In this document: piece after piece, positions 39,119 through 59,094 of the stretch
How positions within the stretch are numbered: position 1 is the first letter of the stretch
How the letters are laid out: the number at the start of each line of letters is the position of its first letter
Source: an uncultured Haloferula sp.
Lineage (GTDB): Bacteria; Verrucomicrobiota; Verrucomicrobiia; Verrucomicrobiales; Akkermansiaceae
Reading direction: 5' to 3'
Length of the DNA stretch: 64,000 bases
Assembly (NCBI GenBank): GCA_965652295.1
Contig: CBFGTS010000004.1
Span: 64,001 to 128,000 of the forward strand
The notes under the pieces: model-generated
What the model saw: the letters and a program-made list of their open reading frames with translations, nothing else
The model's database searches: none
Told to the model about the DNA's origin: nothing
Translations under genes and position numbers: made by a program

Positions 39119-42100
39119 TCAGGGTTCCGTGCCTTCGGCGAGACGGAAAAAGGCCTTCAGGTTCGTGGATGCGTCGACTTCCAGAACGCTGACTTCCGTT
39201 TCCCCGGCCGCCGTGAAGCCGGATCCGACGATCGGAGCGAAGTCCGCGAGGTTCACTCCGCCCTCGATGTGATAGGGCTGTCCCGCCGCGAGCCCGCCGA
39301 GGGTGAGGGTCAGCGTGTCCGGGTCGGCGGCGGTATCGAGAGCGACCGCGGTGATGACGGGGTTCGACTCCACCGGCGGCACGACCGTTCCGAGGGGAAG
39401 GATGATCGCCGGAGCGGGATCCGTGCCTTGCTCTTTCATCGTGATCCCATGCCAGCGGTTGGCGTGTGCCGCGTCCATCGCCAGCGTGACCACTCCATCG
39501 GTGTCGCTTTCGAGGAACGAAGTGAGATCGAGCATTGTGGGGTTGGAGTAATAAACCCCGACCGCCGTTGGTTGGATGGTGCCGAGCAAGACCCACTTCG
39601 CTGGATCGCGTGCCCAGATGTTCAGGGTGGAACGTTGCTCTTCGATGATTCCCGGAGCGTTTGCGTAGTTCGTCGTGGATTCGGCCCAATTCTCACCTTC
39701 GTCACCATCGATCAGACCGTAGACGTTGATGACTCCTTGGGTGCCCGATGACCAGGGAACATGGATTCTGAGCACCGCATTCGACAGGTCTCCCATCATG
39801 GCCGAGCGGTCGAAACGGAACATGGGGATATGGAGGCGGCTGACCTGATTGTTACGAATGCTAACCACGCCATCGGCTCCGTGGATCGCGTCGGGGCCGG
39901 TCGTTGCCGTTTGTTCATCGTTGGAGAGTTCGGTATCGGCACCATTGCCCACTGCGGTGGTCGCTTCTCCTGCGGAGGGCACGGAAGACATGAGGGTCGG
40001 ATCGGTGCCCGCGTGGAACTCGATCACGTTGATCACGCCATCGTTGTCGGAATCGTCGGTGCCGACCTGGGTGGTTTCAGTGGTGAAATAGAACCGCTCC
40101 CAGCCTTCGGGCAGGCCGTCTCCATCGGTGTCCGGCGAGGAGAAGGGATCGCTGCCGTTCGTGGCCGCGGCGTATTCCTCCGCGTTGCTAAAGCCGTCCG
40201 AATCGTTGTCGTCGGTCTCTAGCTCGGTGGTCGTCAGGTCACCGAACGAGAACATCTCCCAACCATCACCCAGGAAGTCCTCGTCCGTATCGGGCGAGCT
40301 GGTGCGGAGGGTGGGATCGGTTTCAAAGGGAAGCGCGCTTTCCTCCTCTTCGTTGGTGGCATAGTCGAGATCCGGGTCGTCATCGCCGTCGTAGAGCGCG
40401 ATGCTGGTGAAGTAGGTGATTTCAAACGCATCGAGCAAGCCGTCCGCATCGGTGTCGTCGGGAACGGAGGCCTGGTTGGTAGGGTCGGAACCCGCGAGGT
40501 ACTCGTCGTAATTGGTGACCAGATCGGAATCGGCGTCGGCGGAAGGATCGCTGGCGGTCGCAAGGTCACCGAAGACGAGCACTTCCCAGCGATCGTTGAG
40601 TCCGTCCGGCTCGCTGTCCACGAAGCTGTCCTTGCTCGTTGGGTCGGTGCCGGCGTTCTCTTCTTCCTCGTTGGTGTAGAGATCTCCATCCGAGTCGTCA
40701 GATCCGCTCTGGAAAAGAAGATCGGCGAGGTCATCGTCGAAAGTGTCGAAGTAGGTCAGCTCCCAGGTGTCGTCGAGACCGTCGGCATCAGCGTCTCCGG
40801 GAACCGAGTTGGGGTCGTTCGGGTCGGATCCAACAGGGGTGCCATCGGCTTCCTGTTTGTTGGTCAGTTCATCAAGGTCGGGATCGCCGTCAACGTCGTC
40901 CGTGACCGCGACGTCTGCGAGGGAGACGAGGCCGTCGTTGTCGCCGAAGTAGCGGTCCTCCCAGAGGTCGTTCAGCGTGTCGGCATCGATATCTCCGGGG
41001 ATGGATGCGACATCATTCGGGTCGGAGAGTGCATCGTACTCGGCCGTGTTGGAGAACGTGTCAGCGTCGTTGTCGCCGAAGGCATCGGTGGCAGTGGTGA
41101 GGTCTCCAAAGAAGAAGGTTTCCCACCAGTCGTTCAGTCCGTCGCCGGTGTTGTCGAGGTTCTCGTTGTCGAGATATGAATAGTAGTCGCGAGGGTCGGT
41201 GCCGGCAGCTTCCTCTTCGGTGTTGGTTCCGTGGTCCCCATCGGGATCCTCAAATCCGGTGGCCACGGTCAGGTCGGTTTCGGTCACGATCCCGTCGTTG
41301 TTGCCGAAATACAGATCCTCCCACAGGTCGGTGAGTTCGTCGCCGTCGATGTCTCCGGGGATGGAGAAGGACCAGTTCGGATCCGATCCGGCGGTCTCTT
41401 CAGTCTCGTTGTCGAAGGTGTCGTTGTCCGGATCCCACTCCGCGCCCAAGGCGACGTCCTGGGCTTCGGTTCCGCGCGCCGAGGTGAGATCACCGAAATT
41501 GGCGATTTCCCAATCGTCGGTCAGGCCGTCCCCGTCGGAGTCGTCGCCGACCACGTTGGGGAAGGTGATGACCGGGGCGATCCCGGTCTCCTTGGACGTG
41601 AAGAAGAACGATTCAGAATCGTTGTCCACTTCCGCAAGGGTCACCAAGAAGGTGATCAGACCATCGGTGTCTGCGGCGATAAAGGTGTCGAGGTCGGTGC
41701 TGGGTTCCGTGGTGTTGAGCCCCACCACGCTGGTGGTGGTCCGGGCGACCCACGAGGGAGTCATTTCGGCGGTAAAAATGGGTTCGCTAGCGAGAGGCGT
41801 AGTGGGGTCGACGCCGGCGGCGGTGGCGAAGGTCACGGTGGATTCGTCCCAAGCTTCTCCCTGGCCGCCCGTGGCACCGTCAACGACGCCGTAGAAGTTC
41901 AGAGGACGACCGCGGTTCACGCCTGTTCCGTTGAGGGTGATCGTAGCCCCGGAGAGATCGCCGGAGATCTCGCTGATATCGAAGCGGATGTAGATATGCC
42001 GCATCCGTACGGAGTTGGCTTCCCGGAGGGCCAGGTCCTCGGTGCCGTGATTGGCAGCGGGTCCGGAGTTGGAATCGTTGGACAAGTAGGTGTCCGCGCC

Positions 42101-42205: not shown

Positions 42206-42296
42206 GGGTCTTGGGTGGCGAGGTCTGGCCGAGGAGCGGATTCCTCAGCGTCTCATACCTAGCCTCATCCAATCACCCATGCGCACTCCGGGAGAA

Positions 42297-42339
42297 TACC
42301 CCTTGGGGGTTAAATCCGGGGGTTACCCGTCCGGGGGAT
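42297..42339. promoter_or_regulatory. Two NarL-type 7-2-7 inverted-repeat boxes
   Basis: TACCCCT-tg-GGGGTTA (42297-42312) and TACCCGT-cc-GGGGGAT (42324-42339). Confidence 0.55.
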
Positions 42340-43001
42340 CAAAGATTCCACGGTCCCTGCTCTTTGGAATCGCGGAACTTCATCGCGGCTTCCGTTCGCG
42401 AGCGGACGTGAAGCTTTTCGTAGATGTGCTTCAGGTGGACGCGGACCGTTTCAGTGGAGATGCCAAGACGATGGGCGATTTCCTTGTTGGCCAGCCCCTC
42501 GCAGAGCAACTCGAGGATCTCGGTTTCGCGGGGGGAAAGGTTGATTTCCTCCTGCGGTTCGCGCGCCGGCTGGTGGAAGGCTTCGACGACGCGGCGGGCG
42601 ATCTCGGCACTCATCGGAGCTCCGCCGCTGAGCACGTCGCGGATCGCGTCGCGGACTTCGGCCGGCGTCGAGCGTTTGAGCAGGTAGCCGGATGCACCAG
42701 CTTTGAGCGCTGCGAAGATTTTGTCGTGATCCCGGTAAACCGTGACCATAACGACCTGCGTTTCCGGAAGGTGCTGTTTGAGCCGTGCCGTCGCCTCGAT
42801 TCCGGACATGCCGGGAAGGTTGATGTCCATGAGGATGACCTGGGGCCGGAAGGCGTCGATCTTCGGCAGGGCGTCCTCACCGCTGGTCCAGACGCCGAGG
42901 CATTGGAAGTCGTCCGAGGATTCGACGATTTTGCGGAGACCGTTGGCGAGCGCTGCGTTGTCTTCGACGATGGCGACGGTGATCGGTTTGGTTTTGCTCA
43001 T
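42339..43001 (-). CDS. NarL/LuxR family response regulator
   Basis: VEDN, MDINLPG, GYLLK, LSPRE...NKEIA...HIYEKLHV. Confidence 0.93.
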   Translation of the reverse strand: MSKTKPITVAIVEDNAALANGLRKIVESSDDFQCLGVWTSGEDALPKIDAFRPQVILMDINLPGMSGIEATARLKQHLPETQVVMVTVYRDHDKIFAALKAGASGYLLKRSTPAEVRDAIRDVLSGGAPMSAEIARRVVEAFHQPAREPQEEINLSPRETEILELLCEGLANKEIAHRLGISTETVRVHLKHIYEKLHVRSRTEAAMKFRDSKEQGPWNL

Positions 43002-43018
43002 GGCGTGGAGGAAGAAGC

Positions 43019-45787
43019 TCAGGCTTGGGGAAGGGGCAGGCTGATGGTGACCACCGTGCCCTCGCTGGGCACGCTGTGGAAACGACAATCTCCGCCGGAA
43101 TCCTTCAAACGTTCCTTCAGGTTGAGGAGGCCGTGGCCCGACGAGTGCAGCGCGGAGTCGAAGCCTTTGCCGTTGTCGGTGATCCGGATGAGAAGTTCTC
43201 CCTGCTCGATTCCGATTCTCAGGGAAATGGTGTCGGCCTTGGAATGTTTGACGGCGTTGTTGAGCGCTTCGCGGGTGGCGAGGAAAACGTTGTGACGTCG
43301 GCGGGGACCGATGATGAGATCCGGGACCTGCCGTTCGATTTCGGCATGGAGCCGGATTCGGGCCGAGTCGAGAAACTCGCGGGCGAAGGCGGCGAGGTAC
43401 TCGATGAGTGACTTCAGGCTGTCCTCGCGGGGTGTCGTGGCCCAGACGATCTCATCGAGGGTGGTGACGACTTCGCGGGCTTTCGAGGAGAGGGTGTTGA
43501 CGGCCTGTGGCAGATCGTCGTCGTCCGGCTTCTCCGCGATGAGAGCGGATAGGATCGAGAGCTCGGTGAGGCTGGCACCGAGATCGTCGTGGAGGTCGCG
43601 GGAAATCCTGGACCGTTCCTTTTCCAGCAACTCCCGCAGGTGGAGTTCCTCCATCTTTCGGCGGAGCCTGCGTCGGGTCAGGAGCATGCCAACCGCCACC
43701 GCGAAGAGCGCGATGGCGACACCCGAAGCCGCCCAGAACCAAGGTAGCTGCCAGAAGTAGGGCCGCACTTTCAGCTGGATCGAGGCGGGAGCAGCCGAGG
43801 CACCATCGCCATTGGTCGCGATCACTTCGAACCGGTAGCGGCCGGGGGGGACCGACTCGTAGCTCATTTCGCGGCGTGCTCCGATGGGTTGGAAGGTGTC
43901 GTCGAGACCGACCAATCGGACCCGGTAGGTGACCTTTTCCGGGGCGGAGAGACAGACGCCCGTGTAGTGGAACTTCAGCCGCACGCGGCCGGGCCCTGCG
44001 GAGATGGTGTCGGGATGAAGTGGCACGGGAGTGCCGTTGATTTCCACCGGGCGGAACAGCAAGGTCGGGGGGAGGTTCTGGAGATCGATCTCCGAGGGCT
44101 GCACGCCCACCGGACCGCTGGTGGTGGGAAACCAGAGGGAACCATCGGGTTCCTGCCAAACACCCGGCTGCGAACCGCCGACGCATTCACGGGTGCTGAG
44201 CCCGTCGGAGCGATCAAGGCGTAGCCAGCGGGTGGGTTGACCGGGCTGGGTGAGGGAGCGCAGCAGGGAGTCTCTGCTGGCGCGGAGGATGCCACCGAGA
44301 GAGCCGAACCAGAAGTGGCCCTCGCCGGTTGCCACCATCCCCGTGAGACGGTCGTCCGGAAGCCCGGCCTCCGAGTCGAAGTTGTGCCACCGGCCCCCAT
44401 GCCACAGCCATAGGCCGGAGCCGATCGTAGCCACCCAGAGTTCATCGGGTCCCTGTGAATGAATGGCGGAAACGCGGCGGCCACCGTTCGCTGCGGGCAC
44501 GCCTAGATCGACGAATTCTCCGTTGCGCAGGGCGAGCACCCGGCCATCGGTCGTGCCGGAGTAGACCGTGCCGTCGGAACCGACTGTCAGGACCGAGCAC
44601 TCCGCCGGACGGGCCTCGGTCCCGATCTTGTAAATCTGTGGAAGTCCCTCCACCCAGCGGGCAATTCCGCGGCCGCCGCCGAACCACAGGGTTCCGTCCG
44701 CATCCTGAATGATCGAGTTCACCTTGGAGATTTCATCCAGCCCCGCGAAGGGTCGCGTGAAGCTCTTGCCGTCCCACTGAAAAACCGAACCATCCGTCGA
44801 GCCCGCCCAAAGCCGTCCGTCGCGATCCTCGAAAAGGCAGCTTACCGGCCGTTCGTAACCTCCAGCCACCAGCTCCAGGTGCTCGATTTCAGTCCCTCGC
44901 AGGCGGTCGAGCCCGCCTGCCCGGCCTGCGAGCCACCAACTGCCGTCGCGGGTCCGGATCAGGGTGCGGATGGCTTGATCCTCCAAGGATGAGCCGGGAG
45001 CCAGCTGCATCACCCGGCTGGGTCTCACGCGGATCACGCCCTGGACGGGACTGGCGATCCACAGGTTTCCCTCGCGATCCTCGAACATGTCATTGGCGGT
45101 GACCAAACCGTCGAGCAGCTCCACCGTGGCATCCGGCTGTTCGTTGTCTGCGGGACGGTGGAGAAGCTGCCGGCCGACGATTTCCCAGATGCCGCCGTCG
45201 CGCTTGACCAGCCTGCCGGAGCAGACCGGCGAAATCGTCCTGCCCCTCGCCGCTTGTTCCCGGATTTCGTCCAACATCACCTGCTCAAGCGCATCCGGAG
45301 GCGGATCGACCAGTTCCTGCCCATCAAGGCCGATGCGGAACAGCTTGTCTCCCTTGAGATAGTGGACCGTTTCCTCGAAGAGGACCAAATGGGTGACCAG
45401 CGGCGGGTTGGGTTCGCCATGATCTTCGACGACCCGGACGAGTCGGTCGCCCTGAACCTTCAGCAGCCCGCCTTGGAAGGTGGACACCCAGACGCTGCCG
45501 TCGTCAGGAGTCATCAGGCGGAAGAAGCCAAGCCGCCGGCCCCGGTACCCGGTGGTCCCGCTGATGAGCTTGAACTCGAAGCCGTCGAACCGGGCGAGGC
45601 CTTCCGCCGTCGCCACCCAGAGCAGCCCGTCTGGCGTCTGACCCAGCGATCGGACCACGTTTCCCGGCAGTCCTTCCTCGGATTGCCAGTTGCGGACGAG
45701 GAAATCTTGGGGGCGGTCGGCGGACTCCGCGCTCATGCCCGAGACGATCAGGGCAGCCAGGCAGGCGAGGAGGCGAAGCATCGTCAT
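43019..45787 (-). CDS. Sensor histidine kinase with Reg_prop beta-propeller and Y_Y_Y domains
   Basis: GLPGN.V...G.LWVAT repeats, YRVRLVG...Y..VPPGRYRFEV, RISRDLHDDLGA, EALNN, DNGKG. Confidence 0.92.
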   Translation of the reverse strand: MTMLRLLACLAALIVSGMSAESADRPQDFLVRNWQSEEGLPGNVVRSLGQTPDGLLWVATAEGLARFDGFEFKLISGTTGYRGRRLGFFRLMTPDDGSVWVSTFQGGLLKVQGDRLVRVVEDHGEPNPPLVTHLVLFEETVHYLKGDKLFRIGLDGQELVDPPPDALEQVMLDEIREQAARGRTISPVCSGRLVKRDGGIWEIVGRQLLHRPADNEQPDATVELLDGLVTANDMFEDREGNLWIASPVQGVIRVRPSRVMQLAPGSSLEDQAIRTLIRTRDGSWWLAGRAGGLDRLRGTEIEHLELVAGGYERPVSCLFEDRDGRLWAGSTDGSVFQWDGKSFTRPFAGLDEISKVNSIIQDADGTLWFGGGRGIARWVEGLPQIYKIGTEARPAECSVLTVGSDGTVYSGTTDGRVLALRNGEFVDLGVPAANGGRRVSAIHSQGPDELWVATIGSGLWLWHGGRWHNFDSEAGLPDDRLTGMVATGEGHFWFGSLGGILRASRDSLLRSLTQPGQPTRWLRLDRSDGLSTRECVGGSQPGVWQEPDGSLWFPTTSGPVGVQPSEIDLQNLPPTLLFRPVEINGTPVPLHPDTISAGPGRVRLKFHYTGVCLSAPEKVTYRVRLVGLDDTFQPIGARREMSYESVPPGRYRFEVIATNGDGASAAPASIQLKVRPYFWQLPWFWAASGVAIALFAVAVGMLLTRRRLRRKMEELHLRELLEKERSRISRDLHDDLGASLTELSILSALIAEKPDDDDLPQAVNTLSSKAREVVTTLDEIVWATTPREDSLKSLIEYLAAFAREFLDSARIRLHAEIERQVPDLIIGPRRRHNVFLATREALNNAVKHSKADTISLRIGIEQGELLIRITDNGKGFDSALHSSGHGLLNLKERLKDSGGDCRFHSVPSEGTVVTISLPLPQA

Positions 45788-45845
45788 GGTTTGGCGGGTC
45801 CCGGTGATCCTGTCGAGTCCGGGGAGCGGTCGGCCGAAGCGTATA

Positions 45846-45873
45846 AAAGCCGCCTTCCCACGAGGGAAGGCGG
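45846..45873 (-). terminator. Intrinsic terminator after PEP-CTERM gene
   Basis: gccgccttccc/gggaaggcggc stem followed by a T tract on the minus strand. Confidence 0.75.
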
Positions 45874-45898
45874 CCGGATGCCGGGTCGGCGAGAAGTG

Positions 45899-46696
45899 TC
45901 AGCGCCGGCGACGGAAGAAGCCGAGAATCCCGAGTCCGCCGAGGAGGGCGATCGAGGGTTCCGGAACCTCTTGAATCGCGATGTCGTCAAAGAAGGCTTC
46001 GGAGCGGCTGTTGGTGGTGTCCGAGTCAAAATAGCGGATTTGCATGTAGACGGTGCTTCCGGCGCTCACTCCGGAGCCGCTGAGGTCGAAATCCATTTGC
46101 CAGCTCTCCGCAAGCGCCTGCCCGACCGGATTGAGGGTTGTGAGATCGATGTCGAGCGTGCCGCTCTGCGGGGAAAAGGTACCTCCAGCACTGGCTCCGA
46201 CCGTCATCGCACCGATCTGGGTGAGACCCACGGTGGCGTCCAGCGAGCTGCCATTGGCGAGCGTCGCCGAGCCATCGTCATACCAAAGACTGAGCTGGAT
46301 GATCGCGGCGTGACGTCCGGTTCCCGCGCGGTCGCCGCGGTCGGACGAGATGCCCGTCACCCTCAGGTCGGACACACCCGGCGAAAGCGTACCGAGCGAC
46401 TGATGGAAGTAGATGTCACCGATGGTTCCGGCCGAGTTGCCCGACAGAGCCCCCCAGTTGTTGCCGGCTCCGCCTCCCAGGCCGTCACTGTCTTTGAGCC
46501 ATTCGACCCAGCCTCCCGTGGGGGTGGATTCAAACCAGGAGGTGACGTCGACGGTGCTGCCCTCGGAGTTGTTGGAAACCGCGTCGGCTTCGAAGTCGCC
46601 GTTGGTGACAACGAGGGCGGCGGAGGCGGGAAGTGCCGCGCCCAAGGCGACGAGGGCGGCCAGCATTGGTTGTTTTTTCATAGAGGTTTTCTTCAT
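45899..46696 (-). CDS. PEP-CTERM sorting-domain protein
   Basis: Signal peptide; C-terminus VPEPSIALLGGLGILGFFRRRR. Confidence 0.9.
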   Translation of the reverse strand: MKKTSMKKQPMLAALVALGAALPASAALVVTNGDFEADAVSNNSEGSTVDVTSWFESTPTGGWVEWLKDSDGLGGGAGNNWGALSGNSAGTIGDIYFHQSLGTLSPGVSDLRVTGISSDRGDRAGTGRHAAIIQLSLWYDDGSATLANGSSLDATVGLTQIGAMTVGASAGGTFSPQSGTLDIDLTTLNPVGQALAESWQMDFDLSGSGVSAGSTVYMQIRYFDSDTTNSRSEAFFDDIAIQEVPEPSIALLGGLGILGFFRRRR

Positions 46697-46923: not shown

Positions 46924-47679
46924 TCAGGACCTCCGGCGATGGAGCAGCCCGAGTACACCGAGGCCGCCGAGGAGAGCGACGGAAGGTTCGGGGACGTAGT
47001 CGACCGTCAGCGTCGGAACTTGGACGTCGGTGTTTTCGCTGGAAGCGAAAGCCATCCCGCGGTTGGCGGCGCTGTCCGGGTTGAAGAACATGAAGGTCAC
47101 CAGGCCATTGTCCGAAAACCGTGTCTGGACGAAGGCTGTGACTGCGGCTCCGGTCAGGTCCACCGTGGTACCCGAAGTCACTGTGTCCAAACCTGCAAAG
47201 CTCGTCGAACGGCTGTCTCCAGAGCTGAAGGGATCGGTAATGGTCGCAATGGAGGTGGCTGTCAGTTCATCCCCGGTGGTGGAGAAAGTCAGGGTGGATT
47301 CGTCCCAGTTTTGGGGCGTGTTGCCTGCCGTGCTGTTCAAACCGAAGATATCGATCCGGCCGGTCACGAGCGTGTCACTCCGGTCCGAACCGGTGAGGCC
47401 GTTGCCGGGGTTTGAACCAAGTTTGGTGAGAGTGAAGTTGACGGAGGTGATCGAGGAGCCTACGGGAATCGTGGAGAGGTCGAACTGGACGTAGGACATC
47501 GCGTTGAGGTTCCCATCGAAGCGATAGATGTCGAGGTCGACATCGGATCCCGTGTTCGCTTCGGTGTAGCCGGTGTTTCCATCCCGGTGCCAGACCGTCG
47601 CGTCGTGGACGGGGGTCAGGTTGGTCGTCGCTGCCAATGCTGGAGACGCCAGGAGTAGCGTATAGGGGAGTCGTTTCAT
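46924..47679 (-). CDS. PEP-CTERM protein with DNRLRE/CBM96-like domain
   Basis: DATV...YVQFDLS...WDESTLTF...FASSE...PTL; C-terminus VPEPSVALLGGLGVLGLLHRRRS. Confidence 0.88.
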   Translation of the reverse strand: MKRLPYTLLLASPALAATTNLTPVHDATVWHRDGNTGYTEANTGSDVDLDIYRFDGNLNAMSYVQFDLSTIPVGSSITSVNFTLTKLGSNPGNGLTGSDRSDTLVTGRIDIFGLNSTAGNTPQNWDESTLTFSTTGDELTATSIATITDPFSSGDSRSTSFAGLDTVTSGTTVDLTGAAVTAFVQTRFSDNGLVTFMFFNPDSAANRGMAFASSENTDVQVPTLTVDYVPEPSVALLGGLGVLGLLHRRRS

Positions 47680-47888: not shown

Positions 47889-47924
47889 ACAACCGCGGTG
47901 CAAGAACCGGGTTGGACGGCGGTA

Positions 47925-49769
47925 ATGAGAGGGATGATCCGGATGGGACGAGCGATGGCGGTGTCGGGAATGATGGCGGTGACTCCTCTTCACGCATGGC
48001 AACCCGCGGAGACGCTCGACCGCGGGCTCGTGGCGGTCCGACAGGATGACGCGGTGTTCCTGAGCTGGAGGCTGCTGGCGAGCGATCCGGACGATGCGGC
48101 TTTCGAGGTTTTCCGGCTCGGCGGAGCAAAGCCGCTGCGGCTCTCGCCCGAGCCGCTGACCTCGGCCACGTGCTTCCTGAATCCTGAAGGCGGTGACCGC
48201 TATGTGGTCAAGCGGGCCGGGAGCGACGAACGGTGGGAAGTGGAGGTACGGGAAAGACCGTATTTCGACATCCCGATCGACCCTCCCGAGGGCTACCGTC
48301 CGGGCGATTGCTCGGTCGGGGATCTGGATGGCGACGGCCAGTGGGAGATCGTGGTCCACATGGTCGGCCGTGGCCGTGACAACGGATCGCCGGGAATGAC
48401 CACGCCGCCGGTGCTGGAGGCCTACAAGCTGGACGGGACCAAGCTTTGGCGGATCGACCTCGGCAAAAACATCCGGGAGGGGGAGCATTACACCCAGTTC
48501 ATGGTCTATGATCTGGATGGGGACGGCCGGGCCGAGGTGGCCTGCAAGACCGCGGATGGCAGCATGGATGGAAAGAGGAGAGTGATCGGAGACCCTGACA
48601 AGGACTGGAGGAACCTTGAGGAGGGCACGCAGCGATACGGGCGCATTCTGACCGGTCCCGAGTTTCTCACCGTCTTCGAGGGGAAGACCGGGGCCGCTCT
48701 TGCGACGACCGACTTCATTCCGGGGCGGGAACCGATCGGCGGCTGGGGGGGAGTCGGTGGAAATGGCGGCAACGACGTTTATGGCAACCGCTGCGACCGG
48801 TTTCTCGCCTGCGTGGCCTATCTCGATGGGGAGCGGCCGAGCCTGGTGATGACCCGCGGCGTGTATGGCAGGATCGTGATGGCGGCATGGGACTGGCGTG
48901 GCGGGGAACTGACTTCCCGTTGGGTTTTCGATAGCGGAAGCGGCCTTGGGCCCGATCCGTCACCTTTCGCCGGGATGGGCGGCCACTCGCTTTCCGTGGC
49001 GGATGTGGATGCGGATGGCAGGGACGAGATCGTCTTTCAGGCGATGACCGTGGATGACGACGGGCAGGGTCTGTACTCGACCGGTCGCCGTCACGGCGAC
49101 TCGATGCACGTCAGCGACTTCGATCCGCAGCGCCCCGGGATGGAGCTTTACCTGATCACCGAGAATGAAGATGACACCGTGCGCTGGCGGACGCCGGGTG
49201 CCGGCTTGCACGATGCCCGGACCGGCGAACTCCTGTGGAGCCACAGTCCCGGGGTGGACATCAGCGAGGGCGTGGTGGCGGACATCGATCCCCGCCACCC
49301 CGGAGCGGAAGTCTGGGGCGGGCCCGGCGGGCTGCGGACGATCAGGGGCAAGGAAATCGGGAGACGGCCGAGACTGTCTGAATGGGTGATCTGGTGGGAC
49401 GGAGACCTGCTCCGGGAGATCTACGGAGGATACCGTATTTTCAAATGGGATTGGGAAGAGCAGGTCGAAAAGGAGGTATTCGAAGCGGAGCGACCCTTTC
49501 CCGACCGGGGTCGGCGCTGGGGGTTCGGCGGAGCCCGGCCGAGTCTCACCGCCGATCTGATCGGGGATTGGAGGGAGGAACTGCTGCTGGTGGGTCCCGG
49601 GGCGAAATCCCTGCGTCTCTATACCACCACGATGCCGACCGATCACCGGATGGTCTGCCTGATGCAGGAGCGCCAGTACCGGCTTTCGGTGGCGTGGCAG
49701 AACGTCGTTTACAACAAGCCGCCGCACACCTCGAAGTTCATCGGGGAAAACGAGGTGCCGGGGGATTGA
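47925..49769 (+). CDS. Rhamnogalacturonan lyase, PL11 (YesW/YesX-like)
   Basis: LDRGLVA, SWRLL, DLGKNIREGEHYTQFMVYDLDGDG.AE, YGNRCDRFLA, AWQNVVYNKPPH. Start uncertain (47898-47954). Confidence 0.9.
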   Translation: MRGMIRMGRAMAVSGMMAVTPLHAWQPAETLDRGLVAVRQDDAVFLSWRLLASDPDDAAFEVFRLGGAKPLRLSPEPLTSATCFLNPEGGDRYVVKRAGSDERWEVEVRERPYFDIPIDPPEGYRPGDCSVGDLDGDGQWEIVVHMVGRGRDNGSPGMTTPPVLEAYKLDGTKLWRIDLGKNIREGEHYTQFMVYDLDGDGRAEVACKTADGSMDGKRRVIGDPDKDWRNLEEGTQRYGRILTGPEFLTVFEGKTGAALATTDFIPGREPIGGWGGVGGNGGNDVYGNRCDRFLACVAYLDGERPSLVMTRGVYGRIVMAAWDWRGGELTSRWVFDSGSGLGPDPSPFAGMGGHSLSVADVDADGRDEIVFQAMTVDDDGQGLYSTGRRHGDSMHVSDFDPQRPGMELYLITENEDDTVRWRTPGAGLHDARTGELLWSHSPGVDISEGVVADIDPRHPGAEVWGGPGGLRTIRGKEIGRRPRLSEWVIWWDGDLLREIYGGYRIFKWDWEEQVEKEVFEAERPFPDRGRRWGFGGARPSLTADLIGDWREELLLVGPGAKSLRLYTTTMPTDHRMVCLMQERQYRLSVAWQNVVYNKPPHTSKFIGENEVPGD

Positions 49770-50832: not shown

Positions 50833-50845
50833 GATTCGAGAAGAG

Positions 50846-51265: not shown

Positions 51266-51282
51266 GGGAGTGGTGGTGGAGA

Positions 51283-51759
51283 TCAGCAGCAGCCGGAACC
51301 GGGGGTGCAGAGGTTCTTTTGGCCGGGCAGGGGCGGCAGGCTGAAGTCCGGGATGCAGAGTTCCTTGGCGAGGCAGTCGGTGTGTTTCAGCCCGGTATGG
51401 AAACGGAGGACGTCATCGAGGACCTCGCAGCGGGTGATCGGAAGCTGCGTCAGCACGGGAGCCTCGTGCTCAATCTCCACGGGAAGTTCCGTACTTGGCA
51501 GCAGGCCGTCGGCGCGGTCGAAAATGGCGAGCAGTTTCAAGGCTTTGAGGCGGTGATCGGTATCCTCGGCAATCCACACCTGAAGCAGGCAGGAACCTAC
51601 GGTGTGGCGCTTGCCGCCGCAGTCGATGAAGGATTTGGCGAGGTGCCCGACTTCGGTGATGTGGAAATGGGCGGGCACGTCCGAGCCATCGGGAGTGGCG
51701 AAGATGATCCCGTGATCAGGATGCCCGCGGAGGAGGTCGAGGAATTGTTTCGTGGTCAT
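51283..51759 (-). CDS. DUF6428 family protein
   Basis: HFHITEVG...FIDCGG...TDCLAKELC...CTPGSGCC. Confidence 0.8.
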
Positions 51760-51779
51760 GAGGAGAGAGGAAGGGGGGC

Positions 51780-52079
51780 TCAGCAGCCGCAGTCGGAGTC
51801 GCAGCCGCCGATGTCTTCGATGCAGCGGAGGAAGGTCGGGAGGCACTCGCAGGCGATCCGGTAGCGGACCTGTTGGCCGCATTTCTCGCAGTCGATCCAG
51901 CCCGCCTTGCGCATCAGGGTGAGGTGCTTCGAAACCGTCGACAGGTCGCCGCCGACCAGTGCCTGGAGCTCGGAAACGCAGCGCGGCCCGGCATTCAGCG
52001 CCTGGATGATCTCAAGGCGCGCCGGGTGGGCGAGGGCCTTGATGATCTGAACTTTGCGGTCGAGGCTCAGCGCGTTCAT
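51780..52079 (-). CDS. arsR: ArsR/SmtB family repressor
   Basis: KALAHPARL.I, CVSEL, STVSKHL, Cys-rich C-terminus. Confidence 0.9.
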   Translation of the reverse strand: MNALSLDRKVQIIKALAHPARLEIIQALNAGPRCVSELQALVGGDLSTVSKHLTLMRKAGWIDCEKCGQQVRYRIACECLPTFLRCIEDIGGCDSDCGC

Positions 52080-52081
52080 TA

Positions 52082-52116: not shown

Positions 52117-52125
52117 ATATCTTGG

Positions 52126-55100
52126 TCAGGAGCCGGTGTGGAAGCTCAGGACGGTCGAGCGGGTCCTGGTGCCGAGGGCATCGGTGGCTTCGGCGGTGAC
52201 GCGGTGGCTGCCGGCGTCGATTTCCCAGACGGCCTCAAAAGGTGCGGTGTCGTCGGTGCCGATGATGTCGCCGCTGTCTTCGTCGCGGAACTCGACGAAA
52301 GTCACCGAGGCTTCGGTGCCGCTGGGGGCGGCGGTGAGCCGGACTTTGAAATCGAAGGGGTCGCCGCCCGGGATCACGCTACCTGCCGGGGGAGGCGCGA
52401 CCGGGCTCTCGTTGGTGAAATAGGCCGTGAAGCGCCCGCCTGCGGGGTTGACGGTGAAGGTGGAAAGGCTGTCGGTGGTGAAAATCCCGCCGTCGGAGTC
52501 TTTCCAGTTGATGAAATTGTGGCCGGTATTGGCGAGGGCCTTCAGGGTGAAGGTGACGCCCTCGGGCATCTCGGTGGTGGGAGTGACCTGGCCGGCGACC
52601 GTGCTGTTGGCGCGGGTGACGATAGGGTACTGCGGCTTGAGCCCGTTTTCGAGATCTCCGACACGGGGATCCCCGGCGAGTTCGCGGAACCCGGCGGCGA
52701 CGAATTTCGCCATCATCAGTGCCCCCATCTCCTGGAAATGGGTGCCGTCGGAGTTTCCGGTGGGATAGTTCGGATACTCACCGGCAGGGTAGGTGTTGTA
52801 AAAGAAGCGGGAGTTGGAACCGGCCGTGCGGACGCGGAAGAAGTCGAAGGACTTCAGGTTGAGATCGATGACCGGAACGTCGAGGGTCGCGGCCACTTCC
52901 TTCATCCAGCCGGCGTAATTGTTGCTGGATTCGGTGAAGACGTTGCGCATCGTCGAGCCGTTCCAGGCGTTCATGACCATGGGCGTGACGAAGACCGGGG
53001 TGACATCGAGCGCTCGGGCTTCGGCGATGTACTGGGCGAGGTAGGTGCGGAATTCGGTCTCGGTGGTGTATCTCTCCGGTTTGGTCCAGTCGCGGTCGTT
53101 GTGTCCCCATTGGATGAGAAGGTAGTCGCCGGACTGCAGCTCGGTTTTCAGGGTGTCCCAGCGGCCTTCCACGATGAAGCTCTTCGAGCTGCGTCCGCCG
53201 ATCGCGCGGTTGTGGATGGTGATTCTGGCGGGGTCGACGAAGTGCTGCATCACCTGACCCCAGCCTCTCATCGGGTAGGCGCTTGCGCTGTAGTTGGCCA
53301 CGGTGGAATCGCCGATGATGAAGATGCGGGCGGTTTCGTAGGGGGTGATTTCGGTGGTTGCCACCCGGACTACCGGGCCGTCGGTGGCGAGGAAACGGGC
53401 GGTGACGTCGAGGGCGTCGATGTTGGCGAGGTCGTTGCCGTTGCTTTCGAGGCGGATGGTGTTGGTCGCGGCTTGGGCGAGAGAAACCACGACGTCCATC
53501 GTACTCCATGAGTTCCAAGCACCGGTGGGCGGGAAGGTGATGTCGCGGGCGATGCCGTTGACGCGCAGCACTCCGGTGCGCGGGCCGGTGGCACCAAGGG
53601 CGAAGCGGAAGCTCAGGGTCGCCGGGCCGCCGACGCCGCCATCAATGCCGGTCCATTCGATGAACGACCCGGTGGTGTCGAAATTGATGAAGCCGGTTCC
53701 GCCAAACCCGCTGTGGTTGCTTTCCAGGAACCCCTCGAAATCGACGTCCTCCGCCTGCGAGGTGGTGGTGACTTCATACACCTGAGGAAACGTGGTGGAC
53801 GTGGTGAGGCGGAAGAACTCCTGGGCCGGTCCGGTGGCAGGGGCGAATTCCAGAGGCTCGCCTCCTGGAAAGGTTCCGAGGGGCGTCCAGGAAGCGAGGT
53901 CGGGCGAGCTTTCGAGCGTGTAGTCGAGCTCGGTGCGGACCGCGGGCAGGGTGACGAGCGGGCCTGCCGGCTGGGGCGCGACTTCGAGGCGATGGCCTTC
54001 CGTCAGACCGAAGGCGTATTCCTCGAAGAGCGTCGGGCCATTGCTGTCATGATCGAGATCCGGCGGCGAATCGGCGGACAGGCCGCGGTCGGTGAGCCAG
54101 GTGGCAAAGCGGCTCGCGGTGGGGGTGGGCGATCCCGCCGGAGGGATCACGGTGATTTCCGGGACGGGGGCCGCGCCCATGCCCTCGGCAAGATAGTAGC
54201 CGGGATGGGGCGGCTGGTTGTAACCGACGTTCTGCCAGGCGATCGCCAGGCGATACTGCCGGTCGTGCATCAAGGTTGGCAGGCGGTGTGGAGTCGGGTG
54301 GATGGTCGAGTAGACGCGCAGGGCGGAGTTGTCGCTTTCCCGCCAGATGATCTCTTCGCGCCAATCGCCGAAGAGGTCGGCGCTGAGCGCGGGTGTGGCT
54401 TTGGAGCCATTGTTGGAGGAGATGCCGGTCGGCGAAAGCAAGTTGGCGGTGGCGCTGTTTTCCCAATCCCACTTGGCGATGGTGGTTCCGTTGAGGAGCT
54501 CGCGCAGCAGGTCGCCATCCCACCAGCAGAGGAAGTTCATCGAGCCCGGCCGGGTGGAGGCGATCTCGCTTCCCTGCATGTCGTGGAGATTGGCGCGGGA
54601 CGACCACGCTTCGAAGCCGGGGGTGCGAGGATCGATGTCGGCGGCGATGCCGCGGCCGATGTCGTCCGAGGCCGCGACGCCGAAGATGATCTCGCCGGTG
54701 GCCGCGTCGTGGAGTTCCGAGCCGTTTTCCCCGTAAGAACTTGGCGATTCGTGCACCATCCAGACTTCCATGCCCGGCCGTGTGGGGTCCATGTCGGAAA
54801 GATGGAGGGCGTCGCCGTGGGCGAGGCCGGTCGAGTAAAGCCCGCTGCCGTCGTCGTCGATGGTGCAGGCCCCGAAGACGATCTCATCGCGCCCGTCGTC
54901 ATCCACATCACCGACGGTGAGGCTGTGCGCCCCCTGCCCGGCGTACGCGCTGTTGCCGCTGACGTTGCTGTCGAAAACCCAGCGTCGCGTCAGATTTCCC
55001 TCCCGCCAGTCCCAGGCCACGAGGAAGGTCCGCGTGTAATAGCCACGGGTCATCACCAGGCTCGGGCGGGTGCCATCCAGATAGGCGGCACCCGCGAGGA

Positions 55101-56088
55101 AGCGGTCGATGCGGTTACCGTAGTTGTCGCCCCACACCTGCTGGATGCGGGAAGTGGAGGGCGAGGCGTTGCTGTTATCGGGATCGCGGAGAGGGACGAA
55201 ATTTGTTGAGACCAGTTCGGCTCCGGTTTCCCCATCGAAGAAGGTCAGGAACTCAGGGCCGGACAGAATGTAGCCGCCGCCGGTGCGGTAGTCGTCGGTC
55301 GGGGAAAACGAAGGTCGCGCGGGGCCGCCGGCGTCCTGCCAACGGACGGGATCGCCGATGGCTTGGCCGAGCCCATCGAGGGCACCCGGCGCGGTGCGGC
55401 AGGCGAGTTCAGCGCGGCCATCGCCGTCGAAGTCATAGGCGATGAACTGGGTGTAGTGGGCACCGGCGCGGATGTTCGGGCCGAGATCGAGCCGCCACAA
55501 CCGGCTCCCATCGAGCTGATAGGCGTCGATCAACACGCTACCGGTGTAGCCGCTCTGGGAGTTGTCCTTCGCATTGGACGGGTCCCATTTCAGAATGATC
55601 TCGTAGCGGCCGTCGCCATCAAGATCGGCCGCCGAGGCATCGCCAGCGGTGTAGGTGTAGTCTCCCACCAACGGATCGGAGACCGCCGCAGGTGGATCGA
55701 GCGGAATCCGCAGGTATTCGAAAGGAGCGCTTCCGGCAGGGATCGTGGCTGCCTCGCTGGTCTCGTCCGCCCGGCCCCCGGCGACGGCTCGCACGCGGTA
55801 ACTGATGGTGTGCGAGGAGTCGGCGGTGGGATCGATGTAGGAAGTTGGCCCGATGAGGGGGAAATCGGTGATCCGCTCCGCCGCGCCGCCATCGATGCTG
55901 CGGTACACGTGGAAGGTTGTCTCCGGCGGGTCGGTTCCGAGCAGCCGCCAGCCGAGCATCACCCGCCCGTCGTCGAGCCGCATGGCGATGAGGCCGCGGT
56001 CGAGAAACTCCATCTGATGGGCGGCATGCACTGTCGCGACGGAAAGGCAGGCCGCCGCGCAGAGGATCGGGCGGAGGGGGAGGAACAT
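52126..56088 (-). CDS. Multimodular PL11 rhamnogalacturonan lyase - internal FFRL module - CBM35 - CE12 rhamnogalacturonan acetylesterase - Ig-like domains
   Basis: PL11 motifs (NIRAGAHYTQF, AWQNVGYNQPPH); CBM35 (QAED...GFGGTGFINF...TGAWNSW); SGNH (GDST, GWGQ, GGRSS, GHND, DGTH). Confidence 0.9.
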   Translation of the reverse strand: MFLPLRPILCAAACLSVATVHAAHQMEFLDRGLIAMRLDDGRVMLGWRLLGTDPPETTFHVYRSIDGGAAERITDFPLIGPTSYIDPTADSSHTISYRVRAVAGGRADETSEAATIPAGSAPFEYLRIPLDPPAAVSDPLVGDYTYTAGDASAADLDGDGRYEIILKWDPSNAKDNSQSGYTGSVLIDAYQLDGSRLWRLDLGPNIRAGAHYTQFIAYDFDGDGRAELACRTAPGALDGLGQAIGDPVRWQDAGGPARPSFSPTDDYRTGGGYILSGPEFLTFFDGETGAELVSTNFVPLRDPDNSNASPSTSRIQQVWGDNYGNRIDRFLAGAAYLDGTRPSLVMTRGYYTRTFLVAWDWREGNLTRRWVFDSNVSGNSAYAGQGAHSLTVGDVDDDGRDEIVFGACTIDDDGSGLYSTGLAHGDALHLSDMDPTRPGMEVWMVHESPSSYGENGSELHDAATGEIIFGVAASDDIGRGIAADIDPRTPGFEAWSSRANLHDMQGSEIASTRPGSMNFLCWWDGDLLRELLNGTTIAKWDWENSATANLLSPTGISSNNGSKATPALSADLFGDWREEIIWRESDNSALRVYSTIHPTPHRLPTLMHDRQYRLAIAWQNVGYNQPPHPGYYLAEGMGAAPVPEITVIPPAGSPTPTASRFATWLTDRGLSADSPPDLDHDSNGPTLFEEYAFGLTEGHRLEVAPQPAGPLVTLPAVRTELDYTLESSPDLASWTPLGTFPGGEPLEFAPATGPAQEFFRLTTSTTFPQVYEVTTTSQAEDVDFEGFLESNHSGFGGTGFINFDTTGSFIEWTGIDGGVGGPATLSFRFALGATGPRTGVLRVNGIARDITFPPTGAWNSWSTMDVVVSLAQAATNTIRLESNGNDLANIDALDVTARFLATDGPVVRVATTEITPYETARIFIIGDSTVANYSASAYPMRGWGQVMQHFVDPARITIHNRAIGGRSSKSFIVEGRWDTLKTELQSGDYLLIQWGHNDRDWTKPERYTTETEFRTYLAQYIAEARALDVTPVFVTPMVMNAWNGSTMRNVFTESSNNYAGWMKEVAATLDVPVIDLNLKSFDFFRVRTAGSNSRFFYNTYPAGEYPNYPTGNSDGTHFQEMGALMMAKFVAAGFRELAGDPRVGDLENGLKPQYPIVTRANSTVAGQVTPTTEMPEGVTFTLKALANTGHNFINWKDSDGGIFTTDSLSTFTVNPAGGRFTAYFTNESPVAPPPAGSVIPGGDPFDFKVRLTAAPSGTEASVTFVEFRDEDSGDIIGTDDTAPFEAVWEIDAGSHRVTAEATDALGTRTRSTVLSFHTGS

Positions 56089-56166
56089 GGGTTTGCCAAC
56101 CAAGTTGACAGCGATCCCTTCTTTGGTCCTTCCCCCAAAAAGGTTAGCGCGGGAGATGGGCCGAGG

Positions 56167-59094
56167 CTATTCCTCCTCGACGCGGAAGAACCCCTTCGGC
56201 GCGCCATCGAGTGGCGGGGGGAAGCCGAAGGTGTGCTCCGTGGTGATGCCTTGGGAATCGACGCCGGTAGCGGCCTCATAGGGGAAGCTCATGAGGTCGC
56301 TGGATGCGGCGATGCGATAGGTCCTGCCGGGGGAGGAGGACCACTCAAGCGTCGCGGAGCCCGACTCGAAGATGTAGGACTGGATCTTCGGCTCGTTCTC
56401 AAGCAGACCGAGCACGCTGGTGCTGAAGCTGGTGTAGGTACTGTAGGTGCCGTGGAACCAGAGGAGCGAGCGGTCGTAGCCGTGGTCCGCAGGGACAATC
56501 GGACGAAGGTTGTCGGCGGGCGACGCGGTGGTGAGCTGCTCCCATTCGAAGGTGAGCCCGCCATCGGGGGTGACGCCGCGCCAAATCTCGTAGCGTTCGT
56601 TCTGGCGCAACGGCACGGTGCTGATGCTGGACAGATCGAAGGGATTCGCGGCGTTCGACGAGATGTAGATGACATTCGGATTCTCCGGATCGATCGTCAT
56701 GCCGCCGCCGTAATCGTCTTCTCCGGAATAGAGCGGTCGACCGGCCTGGGCGATGAAGCGTTTCTGCCATTCCGTGCCGGTCCAGCGGGCGTAGTAGTAG
56801 TAGATGCGGTCGTGGTTCCAGCCGCTGCCGGTGACGTTGTCCACCTGCACCTGGAAGACGCAGACGGGGTGGCCGTCTTTTCCGTAGTGGACGTCCCAGG
56901 TCCAGCCGCGGCCGGTAGGAATCCAGTCGTCGGGTCCGTCGCCGGGGCCCCAGGCGCTGTTGGAGTATTGGTAGATCACGGACCCGCGCTCGCCGGCCTC
57001 ATGATCGAGCGGGAGGTTGTCGTAGGCGTCGATGACCGTGCCGTCGGTCTTCAGGAAGTTTCCGCCCTGATAGTACATGTGGTAAACGGAGTTGTTCACG
57101 TCGCGCGGGTGACCATCGGTATAGATGAGGTCGATGCGGTTGGTGCCGTTCGAGCAGTAGCGGGGATAGGGTCGGACGCCGCCGGCACCCACGCTGATGA
57201 ACTGGACGGAAGGGAGCCACGAATTCCCCAGGTCATCGGAGACGGTGATCGTGGGATTGAAGTTGATGCACCGGTGGAAGTTGTAGATCCGGTTCGACTC
57301 GTCGCTCAGCAGGTAGGTGTTGTTGTAGGTGTTGTTCGCCGGGACGGTGCGGGGGATCTCCGGACCCCAGTCCGCGAGGGTCGAGGGCAGGGGGACGAGG
57401 GAAGTGCGTTGGTAGAAGCGCGGCTCGGCGATGTGCTTGGTGTAAAGTGCGAGCAGCTTTCCATCCGGAAGAACGGTGATGGAGGGGTTGTTGTGATCGT
57501 CCTGCTGCCTTGAGGCGCTGGTGCTGATGATCATGTCGTAGCTGGTGTTCGTATCCGGGTCGTAGCGGGTGATCCCGTACTGCCCGTCGCCCTTCACGTA
57601 GCCGGCGAAAAGCGAGCCTTGGTGGAAGATGGCGCGCTCGTCGTTGAACCAGGTCCACGCGCCGTCTGGAGCGATCGGCAACGCGTTGCCGGGCAGCGGC
57701 GGGACGGAACCCGCATCGAGCGGATCGGAGTCTGCCTGGATTTCCGCGAAATCGCTGTGGCTGTCGCCGTCGGTGTCGACGAGGTAGGGATCGGTGCCGG
57801 CGGTTTCCTCTTCGGCGTTGGTGAGGCCGTCGCCGTCTTCATCGGCTTCGGGTTCGAGCGCGATGGCGGTCTTGTAGCCGACTCCGTCGTACCAGACCCG
57901 GCCGCCTTCGCCGATGCCGGCGACGTCGTCGATGTAGATGGTGAGATTGCCCGAGGTATCGCTGGTGAATTTGCCGAGCGAGGCCTGGCGCAGGACCCGG
58001 TTGCCTTCGGTGAGGAGCGGGCTTGTCGCGAAGTCACCGGCGGCGGCTTCGGGGGCGATGGTGGCGGTGCCGCCGGCGTTGTCGGTGGCGGCGAAATTCG
58101 TCAGCGGCGAGGAGGGTAGGAAATCGTCGGCGGGAGCGGCGGGGGAGCCATTGTCATTGATGTCGGCCAGATCACCGGAAGCCTTGAGACGCCAGTTGCG
58201 ACCGTCGTTCCAGAAGTAGGCGTAGAGGACGTAGTCGGTCTCGGGATCAAGGCCGGTGATGGTGGTGGCGAGGAGGGGGGCGTCCTCGCCGCCATCGGCG
58301 TTCGATTCAAGGACGTTGCTGTTGTTGCCGAGCGAACGGGTCTCCCAGTTGTTGTCGATCGTGGTGTTGCCCTCGGCCGCCGGGGTGAAGGTCGAGCCAT
58401 CCCAGCGGACGGTGTTCGAAAGAGAGGCATCGAGATAGGTGATGGGGTTGCCCGGCGGGGGAGTGGTGGTGGATTCGTAGGAAATGCCGTCATACCAGGT
58501 CCGGTTGTTGGCGGAAATGGTGGGTGGGAGGTCGTCGATGAAGACCGCGATTTCACCGCTGCCGTCTGCGATGGCGGTGCCGATCAGCCCGGCGTACATG
58601 GTGCGGTCGCTCTCCACGAAAACGGTAGGAGCGATGTCGTAGGAGAGTCCGCTGGCCGCAGTTCCCGCGGTGGCTCCCAGGTCCGGGGCGTCGGCCGGGT
58701 TGGCGAAGATGGTGTTGGTGTCGGCGGCGGAGGTGAATCCGGCCCGGACGCTCCAGTCGGGATCCGTGCCACTGCCGTCCCAGAAGTGGACATAGACGGT
58801 GTATTCCGTGCCGGGCGTGAGACCGCCGATCGTGGTCTTCAGCTCGGGCGCGTTTTCCACCGCTTCTCCGCCGGATTCATAGATGGTGCCCGCCGATGCG
58901 AACCCCGTGCGTTGTTCCCACTGGTTGTCGGCACCGGTGGTGCCGTTGAGGGGTGGCTCGAACGTGCTGCCGTCCGCCAAGGTGGTGTTGCCGCTGGCAC
59001 CGGCCGTGGCATCGACGTAGGTCAGGCCAGCGAGAATGGTGGAGCAAGGCAGCAGGGTGAGGCTGGCTGTGATGAGGCGAAGAGATCTGAACAT
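56167..59094 (-). CDS. Secreted BNR-4 repeat beta-propeller protein with two tandem N-terminal domains and FFRV C-terminal module
   Basis: Signal peptide; GAWTWFND.RA, DDHNNPS, SDD.G.SW Asp-box, RPYPRY; two DxDGD repeats. Confidence 0.82.
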   Translation of the reverse strand: MFRSLRLITASLTLLPCSTILAGLTYVDATAGASGNTTLADGSTFEPPLNGTTGADNQWEQRTGFASAGTIYESGGEAVENAPELKTTIGGLTPGTEYTVYVHFWDGSGTDPDWSVRAGFTSAADTNTIFANPADAPDLGATAGTAASGLSYDIAPTVFVESDRTMYAGLIGTAIADGSGEIAVFIDDLPPTISANNRTWYDGISYESTTTPPPGNPITYLDASLSNTVRWDGSTFTPAAEGNTTIDNNWETRSLGNNSNVLESNADGGEDAPLLATTITGLDPETDYVLYAYFWNDGRNWRLKASGDLADINDNGSPAAPADDFLPSSPLTNFAATDNAGGTATIAPEAAAGDFATSPLLTEGNRVLRQASLGKFTSDTSGNLTIYIDDVAGIGEGGRVWYDGVGYKTAIALEPEADEDGDGLTNAEEETAGTDPYLVDTDGDSHSDFAEIQADSDPLDAGSVPPLPGNALPIAPDGAWTWFNDERAIFHQGSLFAGYVKGDGQYGITRYDPDTNTSYDMIISTSASRQQDDHNNPSITVLPDGKLLALYTKHIAEPRFYQRTSLVPLPSTLADWGPEIPRTVPANNTYNNTYLLSDESNRIYNFHRCINFNPTITVSDDLGNSWLPSVQFISVGAGGVRPYPRYCSNGTNRIDLIYTDGHPRDVNNSVYHMYYQGGNFLKTDGTVIDAYDNLPLDHEAGERGSVIYQYSNSAWGPGDGPDDWIPTGRGWTWDVHYGKDGHPVCVFQVQVDNVTGSGWNHDRIYYYYARWTGTEWQKRFIAQAGRPLYSGEDDYGGGMTIDPENPNVIYISSNAANPFDLSSISTVPLRQNERYEIWRGVTPDGGLTFEWEQLTTASPADNLRPIVPADHGYDRSLLWFHGTYSTYTSFSTSVLGLLENEPKIQSYIFESGSATLEWSSSPGRTYRIAASSDLMSFPYEAATGVDSQGITTEHTFGFPPPLDGAPKGFFRVEEE

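Follow-up and report, generated by a model that had tools for sequence, protein, structure and literature searches.

How do the large polysaccharide-degrading enzymes of Verrucomicrobiota cross the outer membrane, or stay on it? The phylum contains major degraders of complex polysaccharides, Akkermansia among them (PMC13174399), and we found no account of either step in the literature. The question is raised by a pectin locus in a 64,000-nucleotide stretch from an uncultured Haloferula sp. (contig CBFGTS010000004.1, positions 64,001 to 128,000; hereafter the window, whose own numbering is used below), where three signal-peptide proteins carry a similar beta-rich module with an 'FFR' motif near its end. 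An initial annotation had proposed the module as an export or surface-attachment tag. We found that it is a real, large, unmodelled and lineage-specific domain family, present once per protein at the terminus of signal-peptide proteins, and that it is likely to be a sorting or targeting tag of some kind. It resembles an address label, with exit from the cell or adhesion to its surface as the putative role. Our full-text literature search, which had subscription papers mostly outside its scope, returned no description of this domain.

A module family on secreted proteins

The founding module copies and the genes that carry them are as follows.

39119..42205, minus strand: carrier 1, 1028 residues, with a signal peptide, two CBM96/DNRLRE domains, TSP3-like acidic repeats and the module
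39122..39361, minus strand: module, C-terminal copy of carrier 1, residues 949-1028, ending in KAFFRLAEGTEP and the stop codon
56167..59094, minus strand: carrier 2, 975 residues, with a signal peptide, a TSP3-like repeat, a BNR_4 propeller and the module
56170..56394, minus strand: module, C-terminal short form of carrier 2, residues 914-988, ending in KGFFRVEEE and the stop codon; six strands predicted by AlphaFold
52126..56103, minus strand: carrier 3, a PL11 rhamnogalacturonan lyase of 1325 residues with a GDSL esterase and an internal module
53800..53991, minus strand: module, internal copy of carrier 3, residues 705-768 of 1325, with CBM6/35, GDSL esterase and Ig domains after it
53992..54108, minus strand: helix / DxDxD loop / helix element (TSP3-like), which precedes the module in its long form

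The three segments lie where the initial annotation had placed them, and they are weakly alike when compared pairwise (phmmer E 0.002-0.07 in a three-sequence comparison); the copy on carrier 1 scores E 4.2e-12 with profile A1, of which the sequence is itself a part. The database protein for the gene at 56167 has 975 residues and starts at a later ATG. DxDxDG..E..G acidic repeats are present in all three carriers, as had been noted (5, 1 and 1 pattern matches in carriers 1, 2 and 3), with the repeat directly before the module only in carrier 3 and about 470 residues upstream of it in carrier 2.

A hidden Markov model (HMM) iterated from these three segments only, against the 20,536 stop-to-stop open reading frames (ORFs) of the 4.37 Mb study genome, converged at about 100 domains, and the refined HMM found 109 domains in 109 proteins (iE≤0.01), one copy each. 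The names given to close homologues, together with Amuc_ family scores, point to a placement of this genome in the Akkermansiaceae. Reversed ORFs gave no matches with the refined HMM, and five-fold held-out recovery returned 93 of 94 members; the 109 include at least one false positive (an F5/8 domain), a few internal matches are borderline, and about nine further divergent copies below threshold were recognised by eye. The expectation that a search seeded in this locus would uncover a large family mostly on signal-peptide proteins was borne out. The expected position at the extreme C-terminus held for 97 of the 109 copies, which end within 20 residues of it, but not for internal copies before catalytic domains, tandem arrays or N-terminal copies.

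Signal peptides were called in 90 of 103 carriers, compared to 638 of 1917 other ORFs of at least 300 residues (a permissive heuristic with a 33% background), and no transmembrane segments were found in carriers. Carriers account for 52 of the 176 ORFs of at least 1000 residues in the study genome, these 52 being half of the 103 carriers. Their passenger domains, scanned in 79 carriers, are unrelated to one another and typically extracellular: lyases, glycoside hydrolases (GH31, GH98 and GH115), S8 and M12 proteases, CotH/LTD, nuclease, cadherin and PATR domains. With about 110 exoproteins marked in one genome, the module offers an immediate route to exoproteome prediction. One carrier (contig C3 of the study genome, 19575-20402) combines a signal peptide, an Hcp-like (T6SS_HCP) domain and a C-terminal module. 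Sulfatases carry the module in 2 of 11 cases by HMM and one more by eye, and a clean partition of sulfatases by tag was not seen.

Predicted fold and resemblance to known domains

Compared with Pfam and NCBIfam, 61 aligned members gave no convincing match, the best being DUF3999 (four members, E 0.002), and none of the 61 matched Pfam fn3 (PF00041) at E≤0.1. Modelled in isolation by AlphaFold, the short form is a six-stranded sandwich (pLDDT 91), for which structure comparison placed FN3 chains at the top (neuroglian FN3 best, Z 7.8, rmsd 2.0, 69 aligned residues; Z below 8 is in the range of common arrangements), in alignments that end before the FN3 chain does. A profile search of the PDB returned a cytokine-receptor FN3 (E 0.001), and Foldseek against pdb gave no match at E≤0.001. 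On these models, we read the module as an FN3 derivative with strands A-B-C-C'-E-F and without strand G, 'FFR' being the predicted strand F. Strand G appears to be missing because the protein ends 4-7 residues past FxR in most carriers and because tandem arrays have a period of 70-90 residues. The initial annotation had allowed that the module might prove to be a known carbohydrate-binding module (CBM) or FN3 domain; the predicted fold is FN3-like, but the 61 members gave no match to PF00041 and none to a CBM family apart from a single F5/8 hit.

In the long form, as in carrier 3, a helix / DxDxDG loop / helix element is followed by the sandwich (predicted model, pLDDT 85.9). In structure comparison this model reached only Z≤4.7, with rows for SpyCatcher and PorZ at background level. 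By a loose pattern, 72 of 109 carriers have a TSP3-like acidic element 55-150 residues ahead of the end of the module. The nearest clusters in the ESM Atlas are unnamed and from Verrucomicrobiota, with no common Pfam domain. Amuc_1099 and Amuc_1102 were rejected as homologues of the module (hhalign probabilities of 6.8% and 0.1%).

Ordinary FN3 domains (PF00041), including the bacterial type with S-x-D-G..W and YYRV motifs, share conserved residues with the module and, going by its predicted model, the A-B-C-C'-E-F topology; in contrast, the module lacks strand G and in the study genome is single and terminal rather than an internal spacer. A functional parallel among FN3 domains is the type II secretion (T2SS) determinant of PelI and Pel3 in Dickeya and Pectobacterium, a folded Fn3 domain, carried by a pectate-degrading exoenzyme, that in PelI has its signal in the C-C' loop (PMC7949064). 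Those domains, however, are N-terminal and seven-stranded, and they belong to one enzyme family with species-specific loops (PMC7949064), whereas the module is common to about 110 unrelated proteins.

Like the type A C-terminal domain (CTD) of the Bacteroidota type IX secretion system (T9SS; Por_Secre_tail, PF18962/TIGR04183), the module is a beta-sandwich of about 75 residues that occurs once per protein, terminates proteins with a signal peptide, takes the same slot on PL11 homologues and reaches dozens to more than 100 copies per genome. However, no member of the 61 matches PF18962 or TIGR04183, and TIGR04183 is without a match over cut-off in the study genome. The structural comparison with the T9SS CTD that had been suggested went against kinship: the prediction is a six-stranded FN3 derivative and not a seven-stranded 3+4 Ig-like sandwich, seven being the number described for CTDs in PMC11285876. 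The module also occurs N-terminally, internally and in arrays, is probably uncleaved, and belongs to a different phylum. Dockerin type I (PF00404) occupies the same terminal slot on PL11 enzymes, and an acidic DxDxDG loop is associated with the module. The dockerin fold is a duplicated, EF-hand-like helical pair; the module, unlike it, is a beta-sandwich without a PF00404 match or a duplicated calcium-binding loop-helix. The module works like a T9SS CTD or a dockerin and is a member of neither, just as it is FN3-derived without belonging to Pfam fn3.

Exchange of the terminal slot, twins and N-terminal copies

Several lines of evidence indicate that the module behaves as an exchangeable tag. 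Among 42 long PL11 tails scanned (from 80 loci), 19 end in Por_Secre_tail, all of them Bacteroidota-titled and 15 over the Pfam cut-off, three end in dockerin (one clostridium, two planctomycetes), and the module is terminal in two by HMM and one more by eye and internal in two, all of Verrucomicrobiota type. PATR passengers, which are of autotransporter type, end in the module in eight of ten cases by HMM and one more by eye, and the single autotransporter barrel of the study genome is on another gene that is not a carrier. The tag proposal therefore stands in so far as the module takes the terminal slot of T9SS CTDs, dockerins and PEP-CTERM; it does not stand as a T9SS-CTD-like, strictly C-terminal, cleavable peptide.

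The relation to PEP-CTERM is already visible in the window, in the following genes.

45899..46696, minus strand: PEP-CTERM protein
46924..47679, minus strand: PEP-CTERM protein with a CBM96/DNRLRE domain, the domain family of the carrier 1 N-terminus
47898..49769, plus strand: second PL11 lyase, with neither tag (internal contrast)
59289..60026, minus strand: PEP-CTERM gene directly upstream of carrier 2, in a PEP-gene-then-carrier layout; no sequence twin

The three small secreted proteins end in PEP-CTERM, as the initial annotation had it (Pfam scores of 23.9, 22.5 and 19.1 bits, the last of these just under the cut-off of 20.7), and the second PL11 lyase has neither module nor PEP-CTERM. 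The PEP-CTERM/exosortase system (TIGR02595, PF07589; PMC1569441) likewise places a C-terminal homology domain on many unrelated signal-peptide proteins in the same loci, but the module is folded and lacks the PEP motif, transmembrane helix and basic tail, and its carriers are larger than the PEP-CTERM ORFs, which span 119-601 residues in the study genome. The two tags run in parallel, as had been supposed: none of 81 PEP-CTERM-like ORFs of the study genome carries the module, they share loci, and some of their passengers are homologous. Twenty-two of the 81 have a homologous carrier, 13 of them within 8 kb and 10 of these 13 at 43-76% identity, in pairs that span several unrelated domain families.

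Of the 98 terminal carriers, 17 have a PEP-CTERM gene immediately upstream, compared to 5 of 203 other large secreted proteins, and seven of the 17 are true twins, in which a small PEP-CTERM gene is followed directly by a large module-ended gene. Twins lie at C11:160404-164462, C5:177033-180713, C1:582114-585356, C1:588319-591796, C1:419381-422801, C3:209435-212863 and C1:488860-492564 (contig:position in the study genome), with an N-terminal domain identity of 52-76%. The pair 59289-then-56167 in the window shares the layout without twin homology. In the Akkermansia-like genus g2 (14 genomes, five module-positive), a PEP gene is directly upstream of 8 of 14 carriers, several of these arrangements being orthologous, without BLAST homology within pairs. 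Outside the study genome we found one clear adjacent pair (36% identity) among six PEP genes in 20 loci, and no BLAST twins in 20 further loci or in genome G078; close twin pairs may thus be lineage-specific.

In six genes of the study genome (C1:461677, C5:280821, C14:60666, C3:240146, C7:50982 and C8:177452) the module directly follows the signal peptide, split by an insertion in four of them; C-termini are swapped among the six, and each is followed by a small secreted gene, all six of these forming one family. The proteins have TSP3 repeats, bodies without a Pfam name and, in some, C-termini with a zincin HExxH motif. Among 120 homologues of one of them, an HMM built from two such copies detects the N-terminal module in 90 (22 of which the general HMM also found), and none of those 90 has a C-terminal copy, while the C-termini of 88 homologues fall into 14 families. 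Polymorphic toxins carry their trafficking domain at the N-terminus. The N-terminal carriers have the layout of such toxins (conserved N-terminus, swapped C-terminus, downstream immunity-like gene); their toxicity is putative, and none matches a Pfam toxin family at 1e-5.

Of 120 homologues of carrier 2 (BNR_4), 99 have a terminal module by HMM and about 12 more by eye, the remainder being mostly truncated records, and the short and long forms interchange (56 versus 43). The profile matches 43,882 cluster representatives at E≤0.001, some of which are true FN3 domains. Among the top 150, a set that favours multi-copy proteins and includes some true FN3 arrays, 115 end in a copy and tandem arrays reach seven consecutive copies. 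The module is present, patchily, in 75 of 151 Verrucomicrobiota genomes (76 of 151 with the long-form profile), with positives making up 5 of the 14 genomes of genus g2, 2 of the 8 of family f6 and 0 of the 24 of family f12.

Among 50 genomes reached via PL11 loci, eight have 50-96 matches, six of them titled Verrucomicrobiota. The other two are titled Bifidobacterium or Bifidobacteriaceae (G169 and G191, at loci L140 and L179) and have 62 and 82 matches together with an Amuc_1098-family secretin match; these metagenome-assembled genomes are probably mislabelled Verrucomicrobiota. Two Opitutaceae have 0 and 2 matches and the other 40 genomes have 0-7 weak ones, of which the best three inspected are FN3 or F5/8 domains. 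Family f6 and the Opitutaceae-titled G167 and G168 have large genomes with 0-2 matches, although in related families all 15 of 15 are positive; a different terminal domain may serve in their place.

Possible export through a secretin or attachment at the surface

For how such a tag could act, we tentatively favour recognition during export by a secretin-based machine, a reading that our comparative analysis makes possible rather than probable. The carrier would be exported by Sec, and the module, taken as a folded and uncleaved address tag built as an FN3 domain without its last (G) strand, would fold in the periplasm. There it would be recognised as a folded signal, in the way that the T2SS recognises PelI by its Fn3 loops. 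In that Fn3 domain, loop 3, which connects strand C to strand C', is a T2SS signal that binds GspC/GspD (PMC7949064), and the most conserved motif of the module lies in its C-C' loop. GlyGly-CTERM and MYXO-CTERM proteins likewise require the T2SS (10.1101/2023.06.07.544157). The recogniser would most likely be the phylum-wide Amuc_1098-1102 (MUL2) system, which is type IV pilus/T2SS-like and would pass the carrier over the outer membrane. More speculatively, contact might be made through the edge that the absence of strand G leaves open, or else through the C-C' loop. The signal would be the folded domain and not a free or cleaved C-terminus, because internal copies precede catalytic domains and other copies are N-terminal; from the sequences, cleavage after export seems unlikely, and the module probably stays on its carrier.

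The carriers look like secretin substrates in that they have Sec signal peptides and no translocator of their own, and the module sits in one copy at a free terminus of Sec-type exported enzymes, adhesins and toxin-like proteins. The study genome has four secretins: a GspD-type T2SS secretin, a type IV pilus secretin and two of the Amuc_1098 family, one of them in a MUL2 operon; in a set of 20 loci selected for this operon, it was recovered in 19-20. Among the outer-membrane proteins of A. muciniphila, Amuc_1098 ranks first in abundance (PMC4960237). Each g2 genome has exactly two secretins and two Amuc_1098-family matches, whose coordinates were checked for coincidence in G078, so the secretin used by g2 carriers, if any, is of the Amuc_1098 family. 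The genome's own GspD orthologue was rejected as exporter: at E≤1e-60 it was found in 6 of 151 genomes, although so stringent a cut-off cannot establish absence, and g2 has only its two secretins. G078 has a single carrier, a GH18 named by NCBI as an Akkermansia muciniphila protein (presumably Amuc_2164, a locus tag absent from the searched text of PMC4960237), and its two secretins make the export question testable.

Profiling the module against outer-membrane machinery, as the initial annotation had recommended, gave a divided answer: an Amuc_1098-family match (E≤1e-30) is present in 75 of 75 module-positive genomes, and the eight genomes without one are all module-negative, but the family is present in 143 of 151 genomes, including 68 of 76 module-negatives. 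This co-occurrence does not discriminate, which counts against the secretin reading, as do the facts that some Amuc_1098 matches at this threshold span only the secretin core and that related genomes are not independent. Further points weigh on the same side. Neighbour-family enrichment found no machinery gene beside carriers, only regulators, immunity-like genes and glycoside hydrolases; the available text of PMC13174399 describes MUL2 as an attachment and glycan-uptake system and not as a protein exporter. PEP-CTERM twins share their N-terminal domain with carriers and lack the module, so that this domain may cross the outer membrane without it. Tandem arrays are more readily accounted for by avidity or a stalk than by a signal used once. 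Ordinary internal FN3 domains from other bacterial phyla show the conserved S-x-D..W and Y-R-V or 'FFR' residues as well; their conservation is therefore no evidence for a receptor patch and may be structural.

A wider proposal, which we hold to be doubtful, is that a Verrucomicrobiota-specific secretion route built on the Amuc_1098-family secretin (MUL2) uses the module as its general cargo signal. This functional counterpart of the T9SS would read an incomplete FN3 domain at either end of a protein, perhaps by strand complementation. Such a route would export carbohydrate-active enzymes, adhesins and polymorphic toxins, with the twins splitting one domain between it and the PEP-CTERM route.

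Much the same evidence can be read as attachment after export, an explanation that we regard as possible though rather unlikely. Here other signals would export the carrier, and the module, like a dockerin, would bind a scaffold, the PEP-CTERM coat or a glycan non-covalently, possibly with a donor beta-strand from its partner taking the position of strand G. Tandem terminal arrays would suit such a tether, as would the helix-loop-helix of the long form, the frequent acidic element near the module end (with calcium binding as its presumed role), the three dockerin tails in the same PL11 slot and the excess of PEP-CTERM genes upstream of carriers, including those in g2. However, the study genome has strictly one copy per protein, no repeated cohesin-like scaffold stood out among large non-carriers inspected by eye, not by a formal test, and the six-strand model, computed in isolation, reaches high confidence with no partner strand.

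The module might instead be only a structural cap or stalk, a truncated FN3 domain that travels with the stop codon in domain shuffling and protects the protein end without any partner. The FN3 fold and FN3-type conserved residues agree with this, as do the internal copies and arrays, and 48 of 99 terminal carriers end in Pro, compared to 68 of 446 secreted controls (15%), as expected for capping of an edge strand; Glu is last in 22 of 99, compared to 10% of secreted controls. A cap nevertheless leaves unexplained why the module moves to the N-terminus in proteins with variable C-termini, with no C-terminal copy retained, why it never co-occurs with PEP-CTERM, and why it is retained on BNR_4 homologues in interchangeable short and long forms, and we consider it unlikely.

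More improbable still is a signal for a dedicated Verrucomicrobiota exporter unrelated to secretins, possibly with T9SS-like cleavage. It would account for a patchy distribution that is matched by neither the secretin nor the GspD-orthologue profiles, nor by the Amuc_1102-family profile, which is found in 51 of 151 genomes, decays with distance and does not discriminate. Obligate cleavage, however, is opposed by the N-terminal copies and by internal copies before catalytic domains (carrier 3 and loci L005 and L007), and single-carrier genomes such as G078 would maintain a whole system for one substrate. That the module is a CBM directing enzymes to their substrate is hardly credible: it has conserved Trp and Arg residues and weak profile matches to CBM32/F5-8 chains (E 0.006-0.03), but it is also on proteases, kinases, nucleases and toxin-like proteins, and the 61 members match no CBM family bar one F5/8 hit at E 0.04.

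An Amuc_1099-family MUL2 component (locus L087, 7818-8915) carries the DxDxDG..N..EF..GTDP element that precedes long-form modules. Five two-gene cassettes in the study genome (C1:32553, C2:115287, C5:80679, C6:72064 and C13:109097) consist of a pilin-leader protein of about 1200 residues, whose match to Verru_Chthon A or GspK is confined to its first 60 positions, and a secreted protein of about 240 residues without an NCBIfam family. A link between carriers and such pilin-like, Verru_Chthon-type cassettes was rejected, with two of eight within 1 kb of a carrier compared to 21% by chance.

ECF sigma and Ser/Thr kinase families are enriched beside carriers genome-wide. In the window, the carrier and PEP-CTERM genes are flanked at 42339-45787 (minus strand) by a two-component pair, read from sequence as a propeller sensor kinase and a LuxR-type regulator, and at 60153-62455 (plus strand) by an ECF sigma factor and a FecR/LamG protein. 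An apparent arsenic-resistance cluster at 49780-51882 (minus strand), with an Acr3-type transporter and neighbours assigned by sequence reading, interrupts the pectin locus.

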